From NCBI GenBank assembly GCA_023382335.1, contig JAMCPM010000002.1, forward strand, positions 115,173-179,172: a DNA stretch of 64,000 nucleotides. Direction: 5' to 3'. Origin of the DNA: Actinomycetota bacterium. Lineage in GTDB: Bacteria; Actinomycetota; Thermoleophilia; BMS3ABIN01. Each line of letters starts with the position of its first letter. Positions within the stretch are counted from its first letter, which is position 1. The translations under genes were made by a program, and so were the position numbers. Positions 31,271-47,940 of the stretch are shown here, one piece after another. The notes beneath the pieces were generated by a model. It was not told where the DNA came from and searched no databases. It saw nothing but the letters and a program-made list of their open reading frames with translations.

Positions 31271-31903
31271 ATGGCTCGACTCCAGCTTCAGCCTCCGGGC
31301 AAGATCATCGCCGTCGGCCTCAATTACCGTTCCCATGCCGCCGAGTTGGGGATGGAGCCTGCTCCCGATCCGGTTCTCTTCATGAAACCGCCTTCCGCCG
31401 TCATCGGTGAGGGGGACGCGATCGTCTTGCCCGCTGCCTCCCGCCAGGTCGACTATGAAGCCGAACTGGCGTTAGTCATAGGCGGGACTGCGCGCGGCGT
31501 CTCTCAAGCCGACGCCGCCGATTATATCCTGGGCTATACCTGCGCCAATGATGTCACCGCCCGCGATCTGCAACAGAGCGACGGACAGTGGACGCGTTCT
31601 AAGGGTTTTGACACTTTCTGTCCGCTGGGACCGTGGGTCGAGACCGATCCGCCGGCTTTAGAAGCCCTGGTCGAACTGGTGCTCAACGGCGAGGTGCGGC
31701 AAAGCGCCGCCATTGCCGACATGATTTTTCCCCCCTTCCAACTCGTGGCATTCATCTCCGGGATCATGACCCTGGAGCGGCACGATGTCATCCTGACCGG
31801 GACCCCTCCCGGCGTGGGGCCGCTGAAGGCCGGAGATGAGGTCGAGGTGCGCATCTCCGGAGTTGGCGCGCTGAACAACAGGGTGGTCTCGGGAAGCGCC
31901 TGA
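31271..31903 (+). CDS. fumarylacetoacetate hydrolase (FAH) family protein
   Basis: LNYRSHAAE...FMKPPSAVIG...DYEAELALVIG FAH-fold motifs; 210 aa; last gene of the BCAA operon. Confidence 0.75.
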   Translation: MARLQLQPPGKIIAVGLNYRSHAAELGMEPAPDPVLFMKPPSAVIGEGDAIVLPAASRQVDYEAELALVIGGTARGVSQADAADYILGYTCANDVTARDLQQSDGQWTRSKGFDTFCPLGPWVETDPPALEALVELVLNGEVRQSAAIADMIFPPFQLVAFISGIMTLERHDVILTGTPPGVGPLKAGDEVEVRISGVGALNNRVVSGSA

Positions 31904-31917
31904 TTGTTTCGGTGGCC

Positions 31918-32001
31918 GGCAATTAAGTAATGTGTCCCTGAAATTGGCAATTTAGTTATGTGTCCCTAAAACTATGAATTAAGTTATGTGTCCCCCTGGT
32001 T
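31918..32001. repeat. three tandem ~28-bp AT-rich direct repeats (GGCAATTAAGTAATGTGTCCCTGAAATT / GGCAATTTAGTTATGTGTCCCTAAAACT / ATGAATTAAGTTATGTGTCCCCCTGGTT) with further GGCAA-phased copies to ~32030
   Basis: Read directly; shared core TTATGTGTCCC. AT-rich island in a GC-rich genome, between the FAH gene and a small membrane ORF/dnaE. Confidence 0.8.
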
Positions 32002-32125
32002 GGCAAAATAGGAGAAGTCCCTCGGCAAGGAATTATCCTGCTCTTCATCGAATTTTAAAGTGGCAGCACGGCGGCTGCCACTTTGGGCATACACAACCGC
32101 CGGCAAGCCTGGAAAGGAGCACCAA

Positions 32126-32467
32126 ATGCGATTCAAGGGTGGACTGGCAAACGGGGCCCTGGCGTCGATCTACGGCGCCGCCTCGTATATCTGTCTCTTC
32201 ATGGCAACGAACCAGCACGACACGATGAAGACCATCTGTTACGTGCTGGGAGCAGCCGGCATCATCCTGGCCATATACTGGTTTGTCACCAGTGAGGTCA
32301 TGGGAATTCCCATTCTCTTGACGGGCATCTGCCACATAGGTCTGGGCGCTCGAGCCGATCACGTCGGCATGCAGATCGGTTGTACCGGCCTGGCGGTAGT
32401 AGCCTTCGCCATCGGCGTCATCATGCTGACCATGGTCAAATCCGGGGAGCTGGGATCGCGTTCCTGA
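32126..32467 (+). CDS. small hydrophobic membrane protein (3-4 TM), hypothetical
   Basis: GGAAAGGAG RBS then ATG at 32126; TM segments GALASIYGAASYICLFMA, ICYVLGAAGIILAIYWFV, GIPILLTGICHIGLG, CTGLAVVAFAIGVIMLTMV. Confidence 0.5.
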   Translation: MRFKGGLANGALASIYGAASYICLFMATNQHDTMKTICYVLGAAGIILAIYWFVTSEVMGIPILLTGICHIGLGARADHVGMQIGCTGLAVVAFAIGVIMLTMVKSGELGSRS

Positions 32468-32582: not shown

Positions 32583-35500
32583 TTGAGCAAGGCAAACGCC
32601 AATGATGTTGGCGAGACGCCGGCAACCCCGCCGGAGTCCGGTTTTGTCCACCTTCACGTCCACAGCGAATATTCCGTGCTCGATGGCGCCGTCAGAGTGG
32701 TGCCGCTGCTGGAGCGCTGCCAGGAGCTTGGGATGCCCGCCGTCGCCATCACCGACCACGGCGTCCTTTCCAGCGCCGTGGAATTCTATCGTGAGGCCAC
32801 CGCCCGCGGCATCAAGCCGATCATCGGCTTCGAAGCCTATGTGGTCGAGGACCGCAACGAAAAATCCAGCATGCGCGAGGACCGTTACCATCTGACCCTG
32901 CTGGCCGAGAACGACACCGGCTACCAGAACCTGGTCAGGATCTCCTCGCGGGGATTCCTCGAAGGTTACTATTACAAGCCGCGCGTGGATATGCAGGTCC
33001 TCAGGGAACATTCCGAGGGCATCATCGCCCTTACCGGCTGTCTCAACGGCAGGCTTTCACATCTGCTGTTCACCGGCGACCGCGAGGGCGCCGTCGCCGA
33101 GGTCCGCACCCTGCAGGAGATCTTCGGCGAGGATAACGTCTACATCGAGATCCAGTATCAGGGCCTGGCCGAGCAGGAAAAGGTGAACCCGCTGGTCCGG
33201 GAGGTTGCCGCCGAGGTGGGCCGGCCGCTTGTGGCCACTAACGACGTCCACTATCTTCTGCACGAGGATGCCTCCTCACACGACGCCCTGCTCTGCATCC
33301 AGACCGGCAGCAACCTGCTCGATACCAAGCGCCTCAAGTTCCAGGGGGATCAGTTTTATCTGAAGAGCGCCGGCGAGATGTCCCAGTCGTTCCCCGATGT
33401 GCCGGAGGCGCTGGCGAGTTCTCTGGAGATAGCCGAGCGATGCAACGTCACCCTGGATTTCAGCAGGCTGCTCATCCCCGGGTTCGACACACCCGACGCC
33501 AGCGACGGCGATACCTTCCTGCGAAGCCTTTGCGAGGAGGGGCTCGCCCGGCGCTATCCGGAGGGTCCGCCGCCGGAGGCCCGCGAGCGGCTGGAATTCG
33601 AACTGACGACGATCCGGGAGATGGGCTTCGCCTCATACTTCCTCATTGTCTGGGATTTCGTCAGATATGCGCGCGACAACGATGTCGCCGTCGGTCCCGG
33701 GCGTGGTTCGGCCGCCGGCAGCCTGGTGGCTTATTGCCTGAGCATCACCGATATCGATCCGCTCAGATACGATCTGCTCTTCGAGCGGTTTCTCAACCCC
33801 GGGCGCAAGAGCATGCCCGATATCGACATCGATTTCTCGCCGATCGACCGGGAAAAAGTGCTGGCCTATGTAACAGAACGCTACGGCCGCCAGAACGTGG
33901 CCCAGATCATAACCTTTGGAACCATGGCGGCGCGGCAGGCCACCCGTGACGCCGGCCGGGTCATGGGCCTGCCCTACGGCACGGTAGACAAGATCGTCAA
34001 GTTCATCCCCGAAGGCCCCGGGGTCACCCTCGAGGAATGCCTCAAGCCGGGGCAGGAGCTGCGGGCAGCCTATGAGAGCGACAGTCAGACGCGCGAGGTC
34101 ATCGACCTGGCGCTGCCGCTGGAGGGGCTCATCCGTCAGGATTCCATCCACGCCGCCGGCGTCGTCATCTCGGACCGGGCCCTGACCGATTACGTGCCGC
34201 TGCAGCAGAAGGGCGGCGAGGCCGAGGTGGTGACACAGTTCACCATGGATCACGTGGAGAAACTGGGCCTGCTGAAGATGGACTTCCTGGGCCTGCGAAA
34301 CCTCGATATCCTCAAGGCGGCGGTCAAGCTCATCCGCGACAGCAGGGGCGTGGAGATAGAGCTGTCATCTTTGCCCCTGGATGATGAAAAAACCTTTGAG
34401 ATGCTGCGCCAGGGCCAGAGCGACGGTGTCTTCCAGCTGGAGAGCTCGGGCATGAAGGAATCCCTGCGCGACGTGGGGCCCACCGCCTTTGAAGACATCA
34501 TCGCCATGGTGGCGCTCTATCGTCCCGGACCGATGGAATACATCCCTGCCTACGCCAAGAACAAGCGCAACCCTGGCGGCGTCAAGTATCTCGACCCGAG
34601 GCTCAAGGAGATCCTGGAGCCGACGTATGGCGTCGCCATCTATCAGGAACAGCTGATGGAGATCGCCAAGAAGGTGGGCGGTCTCACCCCCGCCGAGGCT
34701 GATGATCTGCGCAAGTCGATCGGCAAGAAGAACCGCGAGCTGCTGGCGACGCTGAAGAGCAAATTCGTGGAGGGCTGCAAACAGAACCAGGTCGCCGCCG
34801 GCGCCATCGAAAAGCTCTGGAAGCTGATGGAAGCCGCCGCCGGTTATTCCTTCAATAAATCGCACGCCGCGGCCTATGCCATGGTCGCCTACCAGACCGC
34901 CTGGCTGAAGGCGAACTATCCCGTGGAATACATGGCGGCTACCATATCGAGCGTCATGTCAACAAAGGACAAGGTCCCGTTCTACGTCGATGTCTGCTCG
35001 CGCATGGGCATCGAGGTGCTACCGCCCGACGTCAACGAAAGCGGCAGCGATTTCAGGGTTGTCGACGACCGCATCCGTTTCGGCCTCACCGCGGTCAAGA
35101 ACGTCGGCGCCAAGGTGATCGATTCCATCATCGAGGCGCGGCAGGCCGAGGGGCCTTATACCTCGATCTTTGATTTCTGCCGCCGGGTGGATTCCCAGCA
35201 GCTGAAGAAGAACGCCCTCGAGAGCCTGATCAAATGCGGGGCGCTCGATTCCACCGGCGCCAGCCGCAAGGGCATGCTCGATGTCATGGCCCAGGCGCTG
35301 TCTATGGGCTCCCAGAGCCAGCAGGACAGCCTCCTGGGGCAGGGCTCGATCTTCGACCTTGGCGAGGACACGGGCTCCCAGGAAGTGCACGATCCCGAGA
35401 TCCCGGCCGGGGAGTTCGGCTCGCAGGACCTGTCCCGCCTCGAAAAGGAGACCCTGGGCATATTCGTTTCCGGGCACCCCCTAATAGGACTGGAGGATGA

Positions 35501-36101
35501 GATCGCCCGCTTTGGCGCCCTGACGATCTCCGGCCTGCAGGAAGTGCGCGACAAGACCAGCGTCACCGTCATCGGCATGGTCGGCAAGGTCAAGCGGCTG
35601 ACCACCAAGAAGGGTGACCCCATGGCCTTCGTCAATCTCGAGGACCTGGGCGGAAGCACCGAGGTGGTCGTCTTCAGCGATCTATTCAACAAATGCAAAG
35701 AGCTTCTTGTCGAGGATGAAGTGCTGATCGTCAGCGGCCGCGCCGACCTCAAGGGCATCGATGAGGAAGGAAACCGCGAGGTCAAGATCATCGCTACCGA
35801 GATCCGCGCTTTCATCCGCCAGGACGGCGGCGATGGCGAAGACGGCGGCGACGATATTGTCCAACTCTCTCTCGATCGGGACAGCTTCGATCCCGGACTC
35901 CTGAACGATATGAAGGAGCTATGCCGCAGCTATCCCGGCGGCACCCCGGTCGTCGTCAGCATGATGACCTCTGACGGGGTAAGGCGGTTGAAGCTGGGAC
36001 ATCAGGTGCGGCCGGAAAGAGGATTCCTGGCCGGCATCGGTGAGCTGGCGGGCATCCGGGGCGTGAAGCTCGCGCGCGGCGTATCGCATGAAGCCGTTTA
36101 A
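32583..36101 (+). CDS. dnaE: DNA polymerase III alpha subunit
   Basis: PHP domain FVHLHVHSEYSVLDGA; pol III alpha core; OB-fold; 1172 aa. Confidence 0.95.
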   Translation: MSKANANDVGETPATPPESGFVHLHVHSEYSVLDGAVRVVPLLERCQELGMPAVAITDHGVLSSAVEFYREATARGIKPIIGFEAYVVEDRNEKSSMREDRYHLTLLAENDTGYQNLVRISSRGFLEGYYYKPRVDMQVLREHSEGIIALTGCLNGRLSHLLFTGDREGAVAEVRTLQEIFGEDNVYIEIQYQGLAEQEKVNPLVREVAAEVGRPLVATNDVHYLLHEDASSHDALLCIQTGSNLLDTKRLKFQGDQFYLKSAGEMSQSFPDVPEALASSLEIAERCNVTLDFSRLLIPGFDTPDASDGDTFLRSLCEEGLARRYPEGPPPEARERLEFELTTIREMGFASYFLIVWDFVRYARDNDVAVGPGRGSAAGSLVAYCLSITDIDPLRYDLLFERFLNPGRKSMPDIDIDFSPIDREKVLAYVTERYGRQNVAQIITFGTMAARQATRDAGRVMGLPYGTVDKIVKFIPEGPGVTLEECLKPGQELRAAYESDSQTREVIDLALPLEGLIRQDSIHAAGVVISDRALTDYVPLQQKGGEAEVVTQFTMDHVEKLGLLKMDFLGLRNLDILKAAVKLIRDSRGVEIELSSLPLDDEKTFEMLRQGQSDGVFQLESSGMKESLRDVGPTAFEDIIAMVALYRPGPMEYIPAYAKNKRNPGGVKYLDPRLKEILEPTYGVAIYQEQLMEIAKKVGGLTPAEADDLRKSIGKKNRELLATLKSKFVEGCKQNQVAAGAIEKLWKLMEAAAGYSFNKSHAAAYAMVAYQTAWLKANYPVEYMAATISSVMSTKDKVPFYVDVCSRMGIEVLPPDVNESGSDFRVVDDRIRFGLTAVKNVGAKVIDSIIEARQAEGPYTSIFDFCRRVDSQQLKKNALESLIKCGALDSTGASRKGMLDVMAQALSMGSQSQQDSLLGQGSIFDLGEDTGSQEVHDPEIPAGEFGSQDLSRLEKETLGIFVSGHPLIGLEDEIARFGALTISGLQEVRDKTSVTVIGMVGKVKRLTTKKGDPMAFVNLEDLGGSTEVVVFSDLFNKCKELLVEDEVLIVSGRADLKGIDEEGNREVKIIATEIRAFIRQDGGDGEDGGDDIVQLSLDRDSFDPGLLNDMKELCRSYPGGTPVVVSMMTSDGVRRLKLGHQVRPERGFLAGIGELAGIRGVKLARGVSHEAV

Positions 36102-47769: not shown

Positions 47770-47940
47770 AGCAATGTCTTCGGGGCGGGGTGGAATTCCC
47801 CACCGGCGGTAAGAGCCCGCGACCCTCTTTCGAGAGGCTGACCAGGTGCAAGTCCTGGGCCGACAGTCAAAGTCTGGATGGGAGAAGATAAGCTATCGGC
47901 TTTGCCCTGGGATGGTCTGTGTCCAGGGTACTTTTTTTTG
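47770..47940 (+). promoter_or_regulatory. FMN riboswitch (RFN element) with intrinsic terminator expression platform
   Basis: Conserved RFN cores GTCTTCGGGGCGGGGTGGAATTCCCCACCGGCGGTAAGAGCCCGCGACC and GACCAGGTGCAAGTCCTGGGCCGACAGTCAAAGTCTGGATGGGAGAAG (P1 CTTC...GAAG). Followed by CCCTGGGATGGTCTGTGTCCAGGG + T8 terminator. Immediately upstream of ribD. Confidence 0.85.

Follow-up and report, generated by a model that had tools for sequence, protein, structure and literature searches.

The repeats immediately downstream of the FAA-hydrolase-family gene (FAH) in the analyzed stretch of 64 kb (64,000 nucleotides, hereafter the window) most probably belong to a dispersed repeat family that is defined by the terminal inverted repeats of one RAYT-like Y1/HUH gene. 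Such a gene is called a TIRYT and forms a TIRtron together with its flanking repeats. We assign a probability of roughly 85% to this interpretation, according to which the window carries a satellite cluster of the family. The cluster comprises three full units and one decayed unit, all in the same orientation, and is located between the FAH stop codon and a promoter-like motif.

Tandem Repeats Finder reported a single array at positions 31918-31994 with a period of 28, 2.8 copies, 83% matches and a score of 105. A separate repeat search found three copies spaced by 28 and 28 bp, and together both analyses delimit three head-to-tail units at 31918-32001 on the + strand. Unit 1 (31918-31945, GGCAATTAAGTAATGTGTCCCTGAAATT) is an exact match to the family 18-mer AATTAAGTAATGTGTCCC and as single-stranded DNA folds at 0 kcal/mol, without a hairpin. 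Unit 2 (31946-31973, GGCAATTTAGTTATGTGTCCCTAAAACT) represents a “middle” subtype, which was also detected in arrays at other loci (loci are designated by L and a number): it is identical in L051, near-identical in L134 and L078, and missing at the orthologous locus in L004/L005/L006 and L018. The reverse complement of unit 3 (31974-32001, ATGAATTAAGTTATGTGTCCCCCTGGTT) contains GGGGACAC, which fits the motif GGGGWSAS, and a unit of the unit 3 type (ATGAATTAAGTWATGTGTCCCCCTGGT) adjoins the transposase gene described below in L078/L144. Directly downstream on the + strand, a segment read off the sequence at 32002-32023 (GGCAAAATAGGAGAAGTCCCTC) is tentatively regarded as a decayed partial repeat unit; similar truncated remnants (TAGGTCC / GTCCCTRAAAC) trail the arrays in L048, L051, L080, and L143. 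The full form of the repeat unit is AATTAAGTAATGTGTCCC(Y)AAAAYT. An earlier interpretation made from the letters of the window (the sequence-only reading) had counted three to five units. The three units at 28-bp spacing stand, whereas the proposed fourth unit (GGCAAAATAGG...) is the degenerate partial one and the proposed fifth (GGCAAGGAATT...) is the start of the promoter-like motif. That the array is not a CRISPR was correctly recognized, as the units abut at a 28-bp period without spacers.

The array also coincides with the AT-rich stretch noted before, with a GC content of 0.41 over positions 31900-32049 versus roughly 0.55-0.70 in the flanks (the region as a whole has ~60-65% GC). Within the 64 kb, the core TWATGTGTCCC is present three times, always inside the array; shuffled sequences contained it 0.48 times on average, and none of 100 shuffles reached three. 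No further copies of the unit were found in the window when up to four mismatches of 18 positions were allowed. The repeats lack self-structure: the folding energy of a single unit is 0 kcal/mol for either strand, and shuffled sequences are more structured than the full array (z = +1.3 and +2.0 for the array). At gathering thresholds, no Rfam family matched in the array region. The only Rfam match in the window is an FMN riboswitch (RF00050, 112.6 bits, + strand, 47772-47893), which is unrelated to the array. A sigma-70 promoter scan revealed no convincing + strand promoter inside the array, and a terminator scan yielded just a weak terminator-like stem of five pairs at the FAH stop codon.

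Outside the window the unit is dispersed. When one genome of each GTDB species was scanned with the 18-mer AATTWAGTWATGTGTCCC, at least 120 stretches matched, and this search for further copies, which the sequence-only reading had proposed as a check, was decisive in that the dispersed copies overturn the regulatory roles favored there. Among the matches listed, at least 18 loci with 33 units on separate contigs were found in SKS1.bin55, a related Thermoleophilia genome to which the orthologous locus L005 belongs as well. In this genome, some units stand alone, whereas others form inverted pairs or follow one another head to tail in arrays of two or three, including tandem arrays with a 28-bp period at the unlinked loci L023, L051, and L076. 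Nineteen of the 33 units lie outside open frames of at least 150 codons, with such frames making up 91% of that DNA, and most of the remaining 14 are located at or near a frame edge. Entire multi-unit blocks are common to unlinked loci: the window array and the three-unit array at the unrelated locus L051 are identical at 70 of 73 positions, and the match includes the distinctive middle unit as well as the junction between TAAAACY and ATGAATTAAGT. In the window's own lineage, the loci seen were the window array and L143.

Clustering of the open reading frames around the listed matches (at least 120) to find genes adjoining the unit revealed a recurrent family of 219-231 aa, which adjoins the unit in different phyla. 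Six proteins of this family were matched by the Pfam family Y1_Tnp (IS200-like HUH tyrosine transposase; E = 1e-11 to 1e-16), and NHIH and YIELNP motifs are visible in their sequences. The best NCBIfam match was NF047646, REP-associated tyrosine transposase (73.1 and 56.7 bits; equivalog cutoff 80), and the best PDB match was 4er8 (E. coli TnpA-REP; E = 2.7e-4). Pfam detected no C-terminal HTH or DnaA_C domain in these transposases. The family comprises 7,967 clusters at E ≤ 1e-20, and its members share ~60-65% identity across phyla. Inverted flanks of the form 5'-GGGACACATTACTTAATT ... AATTAAGTAATGTGTCCC-3' bracket the gene in four phyla, namely in L078 (Actinomycetota), L079 (Pseudomonadota), L082 and L097 (both Omnitrophota), and L091 (Planctomycetia); inverted units also flank it in L143/L144/L145. 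Two larger clusters of open reading frames near the listed matches (13 loci with several frame sizes, and 9 loci with ~170-530 aa) were set aside, as they are not positioned beside the unit in the way the transposase is.

The 64-kb window contains neither the transposase gene nor a second repeat locus, and the link to the window's own genome is made through a near-identical metagenome-assembled genome (GCA_054640975.1, which holds locus L003). This 99% twin of the window encodes a >90% identical member of the transposase family between dxs and tlyA, with three tandem units upstream and two units downstream of the gene in inverted orientation. The window array and the upstream transposase flank of the twin match at 75 of 89 aligned positions. 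In the three relatives examined, the TIRYT gene of this clade has one syntenic place between dxs and tlyA. The order dxs, transposase, tlyA-like methyltransferase, NAD kinase was observed in three related MAGs (L143, 1501-2178; L144 and L145, 1501-2196), and this conserved place suggests vertical inheritance within the clade.

The other matches listed originate from Omnitrophota (many MAGs), Planctomycetia, Nitrosomonas, other Proteobacteria, Acidobacteriota, Hydrogenedentes, and others, with at least 10 loci in one Oligoflexales MAG among the matches listed. The cross-phylum consensus compared with GGGGWSAS is CCGGGGACACATTACTTAATTC. These matches are not attributable to chance, because conservation reaches past the searched 18-mer to GAATTAAGTAATGTGTCCCCGGAATT and because inverted partners recur, being present within 160 nt at 31 of 99 loci among the matches listed. 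When folded, these inverted doublets give perfect hairpins (for example, −23.5 kcal/mol at z = −11). Outside Thermoleophilia, partners in direct tandem are rare (5 of 99 loci among the matches listed). Individual contexts vary: the unit ends perfect palindromes of ~100 nt that enclose a terminator-like hairpin in the Oligoflexales genome (L030, 2910-3012; at least 10 loci in that genome), lies inside a 139-bp tandem repeat in a Kangiella MAG (L058, 6805-7091), and occurs once in an archaeal MAG (L105). Of 2.9 million viral contigs only two contained the 18-mer (L148, 1678-1695, and L149, 865-882; one of these contigs has 676 kb), and this near-absence indicates that phages are no obvious vector. 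A full-text literature search for the unit sequence retrieved unrelated primers only, and the sequence is absent from the supplements of the two publications on related systems that are discussed below (PMC3733652 and PMC6006769).

We recovered the orthologous locus from 16 relatives. The number of units is identical (three) in L003, whereas two units are present in L004/L005/L006 and L018, which share 83-87% protein identity with the window, and two more diverged units in L021 (81% identity). The array thus behaves like a minisatellite (variable-number tandem repeat), with a copy number that changes between relatives, and the earlier suggestion of a minisatellite-like feature was right in this respect. 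Conservation at orthologous loci, another proposed check, holds for L003-L006, L018, and L021 but does not extend to relatives at 55-73% identity, which have no units and yet keep the promoter motif. In one of the recovered loci (L011), the end of the FAH gene overlaps the promoter-like motif. At 4-fold degenerate sites, the window is only 0.54-0.77 identical to the SKS1.bin55 genome and about 0.5 identical to L018 and L021. By comparison, the promoter-proximal unit, which is unit 3 in the window, is identical at 18 of 19 positions among the window, L004, and L018, versus 0.48-0.56 at 4-fold sites (probability 2e-4 at p = 0.55). This identity despite diverged 4-fold sites indicates that the units are under constraint or else are constantly replenished from a master copy.

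The same spacer contains other tandem duplications, such as a ~51-bp unit present twice in L018 (2239-2345) and a 13-bp duplication of GTCCCCCGGATTG in L004/L005 (L004, 3860-3885) that is absent from L006. These lineage-specific duplications mark the spacer as a hotspot for small duplications. In three more distant relatives, a recQ helicase gene is located between FAH and the membrane gene (L007, 1918-3840; L008, 1867-3813; L022, 419-2341). The window's clade lacks this gene and has the repeat array in the spacer instead.

The sequence-only reading had leaned toward a locus-specific operator, iteron, or activator array, in which a multimeric regulator or DnaA/IHF would bind the repeats upstream of the promoter-like motif and control the membrane gene or dnaE, or which would mark an origin. 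The position of the array directly upstream of this conserved motif, which places it about −40 to −145 relative to the inferred start, and the retention of units at the locus in four lineages would agree with such a function. We nevertheless consider it highly improbable, because identical units and arrays exist at 18 or more unrelated loci of one relative and in many phyla, where they are inverted around a Y1 transposase gene, and because the promoter motif persists without repeats in the relatives at 55-73% identity (in L011 the FAH end even overlaps it). The presence of the same units and arrays at unrelated loci likewise speaks against a meaningful link to dnaE. DnaA- or IHF-like sites had been suggested as well, but the DnaA-box consensus TTWTNCACA is absent from the intergenic region (31904-32125); its three matches in the 64-kb window, with ~1.5 expected by chance, all lie elsewhere. 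Moreover, the 28-bp period corresponds to 2.7 helical turns, so that successive sites would be expected to face different sides of the helix. A second explanation, to which we give a comparably slight chance, is that the array is a purely local minisatellite that arose by slipped-strand duplication and has no link to a mobile element. The change between three and two units among relatives, the additional 13-bp (L004/L005) and ~51-bp (L018) duplications in the spacer, and the breaks of short-read contigs inside the array would agree with this explanation. However, unit 2 and the junction of units 2 and 3 are common to arrays at unlinked loci and to the transposase flank, and the family is genome-wide and cross-phylum. 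Local slippage alone is insufficient to account for these common unit subtypes and junctions, and in its pure form this explanation is largely refuted by the dispersed copies, although slippage probably still contributes to the change in copy number.

It is also conceivable, but in our view unlikely, that the host has adopted the repeat as a promoter-boosting AT-rich upstream element, as an insulator or 3'-end element of the leu-FAH transcript, or as a site for a nucleoid protein. Such roles are known for the REP elements of E. coli, and effects of REPs on mRNA stability, on termination, and on the binding of IHF or gyrase have been reported. The array is AT-rich and directly precedes the promoter-like motif, and the near-identity of the promoter-proximal unit in lineages that are saturated at neutral sites could be due to a function for the host instead of turnover. 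Copying from a master sequence explains this conservation equally well, however, and more distant relatives lack repeats before the same promoter motif. In addition, the low predicted structure of the array, which falls below that of shuffled sequence, makes a role as a stabilizing hairpin unlikely. Among the candidates that we dropped, decayed tandem copies of the adjacent promoter motif do not account for a unit that is dispersed and linked to a transposase, and none of the sigma-54, NrdR, LexA, and PafBC-type motifs or a dif/Xer site fits when compared by eye.

Among known systems, the family defined by the inverted repeats of the Y1 transposase gene comes closest to the TIRtrons with their TIRYT genes, probably those of subclass 2.1 as defined by Quentin et al. 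In TIRtrons, a RAYT-like gene lies between terminal inverted repeats with a common GGGGWSAS motif. These repeats constitute moderately abundant families with single, dimeric, or grouped copies (Di Nocera 2013, PMC3733652). According to a later classification, the consensus is GGGG[AT][CG]A[CG], and most TIRYTs fall into TnpA-Y1 subclass 2.1; no REP-like sequences were found around subclass 2.1 genes (Quentin et al. 2018, PMC6006769). The published TIRYT examples assigned to this subclass all have a C-terminal domain of the HTH or DnaA_C type. Like a TIRtron, the family contains a RAYT-like Y1/HUH gene between non-palindromic inverted repeats carrying GGGGWSAS (here GGGGACAC), the unit itself is not a stem-loop, and copies are scattered as singles, dimers, and groups, as observed in SKS1.bin55. 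The fit to GGGGWSAS is complete for the reverse complement of unit 3 (GGGGGACAC), while units 1 and 2 have AGGGACAC, which agrees at seven of eight positions. Two features differ. In this Thermoleophilia clade, the repeats are mostly arranged head to tail at a strict period of 28 bp, and blocks of several units recur at different loci, whereas the published description of TIRtrons stresses dimers and clusters in general. Furthermore, unlike the subclass 2.1 examples, the proteins found here have ~220-230 aa and no C-terminal HTH/DnaA_C domain recognized by Pfam.

The similarity to REP/REPIN elements with their RAYT (TnpA-REP) and to the BIMEs of E. coli is more limited. Common features are short extragenic repeats at many loci and a cognate domesticated Y1 transposase gene between inverted copies, and the perfect inverted doublets that the unit forms in other phyla fold as hairpins in the manner of REPINs. 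Canonical REP identity was ruled out, as the unit is neither a palindrome nor a hairpin and the 5' GT[AG]G tag is absent at both unit ends (AGTAAT or AGTTAT is internal). BIMEs alternate in orientation, whereas all units of the window array have one orientation. The mycobacterial MIRUs are variable-number tandem repeats of 46-101 bp that are not known to have a cognate transposase. Like the array described here, they are intergenic tandem arrays in an actinobacterial genome, are built from a short unit that is dispersed, and differ in copy number among relatives. The unit studied here, however, is 28 bp long and linked to a Y1 transposase gene. With iterons and DnaA-box clusters the array shares direct repeats of ~20-30 bp, an AT-rich stretch, and a replication gene nearby; it differs from them in that its repeats are not locus-specific, are out of helical phase, match no DnaA box, and have no adjacent initiator gene.

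By analogy with E. coli TnpA-REP and the enzymes of IS200/IS605, the transposase would recognize the unit containing GGGGACAC on single-stranded DNA, cut it, and rejoin it; cutting and rejoining of the unit have been reported as demonstrated for E. coli TnpA-REP. This activity would seed new copies and hold old ones close to the master sequence, and head-to-tail arrays would grow when a copy inserts beside a unit already present, through gene conversion, or through slippage during replication. No TIRYT is known to have been characterized biochemically, and movement, binding, or cleavage is not known from any of them. As Y1 transposases normally need a hairpin, arrays of direct-orientation units without one are not readily accounted for by this scheme. 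The array in the window is most likely a passenger without a dedicated regulatory role, although the adjacent promoter or the 3' end of the upstream transcript might conceivably be influenced locally as a by-product. On a more speculative note, and with considerable doubt on our part, the matches might represent one unusually conserved TIRtron lineage that extends across at least 10 phyla with a near-invariant recognition sequence of 20-25 nt (GAATTAAGTAATGTGTCCCCGGAATT), and whose hairpin-less units propagate as head-to-tail multi-unit blocks in one Thermoleophilia clade. If this were true, it would imply a mode of Y1/HUH action, or a host-selected DNA-binding role of the domesticated transposase, that needs no intrinsic hairpin. 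Such a hairpin-free mode is not known from REP/RAYT systems.

The genes flanking the array are as described in the sequence-only reading, with a run of branched-chain amino acid (BCAA)-type genes and FAH upstream and a membrane open reading frame and dnaE downstream. FAH (31271-31903, + strand; Pfam FAA_hydrolase, E = 2.5e-69) is the last gene of a run consisting of a leuB-like gene, a class IV aminotransferase gene, a leuA-like gene, and FAH, and its stop codon precedes the array. The spacer (31904-32125) separates it from a gene for a predicted membrane protein of 113 aa (32126-32467, + strand), which has a ribosome-binding site (GGAAAGGAG) at 32111-32119. This protein matched no Pfam family. 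It is clade-specific, as its 35 homologues are all found in MAGs of Thermoleophilia or Gaiellales-type Actinomycetota, and it shows invariant His, Cys, and Gly positions. The dnaE gene (32583-36101) is located downstream of the membrane gene in the window and comes after it in every recovered locus that reaches far enough downstream.

Directly after the array comes the promoter-like motif CAAGGAAT-N13-ATCGAAT (32026-32053, + strand), which is conserved in relatives and is not part of the repeat. It was noted upstream of the membrane gene in the window, L004, L007, L008, L010-L018, L021, and L022. In 13 of 16 aligned relatives the motif has the ungapped form (Y)ACAGGAWW-N13-GTCGAAY and lies 67-86 nt upstream of the start codon of the membrane gene, and L007, L012, and L022 have a variant ending in GCGAAC. 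Based on this conservation, we infer that the motif is the promoter of the membrane gene, possibly one for an alternative (ECF-like?) sigma factor.

Downstream of the motif, the GC hairpin pointed out in the sequence-only reading is real and slightly longer than claimed: AAAGTGGCAGC-acggcg-GCTGCCACTTT spans 32057-32084 on the + strand, with 11 perfect pairs and a 6-nt loop. A leader RNA of 78 nt that includes this hairpin (32048-32125) folds at −27.9 kcal/mol (z = −2.4). No U-tract is present 3' of the stem, and the structure is not significantly conserved in more distant relatives. In the alignment with L003 and L004, substitutions in the hairpin preserve pairing only via G-U on the + strand, which suggests an RNA stem. 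The hairpin may form a stem-loop in the leader of the membrane-gene mRNA or, alternatively, be a terminator that lacks a U-tract.

The array is for the most part an ordinary feature, being a further case of a known but poorly studied kind of repeat. Its recognition as such removes a tempting false lead, as no specific conclusion on dnaE, replication, or the membrane gene follows from the array. Of interest are the invariance of the unit across phyla and the strict 28-bp head-to-tail arrays of a Y1 target that has no hairpin. TIRtron repeats are little studied, and the family offers a clean test case for how a Y1/HUH enzyme recognizes and multiplies such a sequence, with a short, near-invariant, hairpin-less target, one syntenic transposase gene in each of three related genomes, and arrays of one to three units.

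The repeat also disrupts assembly. Short-read contigs from the window's own sample end inside unit 1 (at ~31937-31945; L001 with its 3' end and L002 with its 5' end), and scaffold gaps of 100 N directly adjoin units in SKS1.bin55 (L025, 5685-5784; L062, 3424-3523). Arrays of this kind thus break short-read assemblies and leave scaffold gaps, which is relevant to the quality of MAGs.
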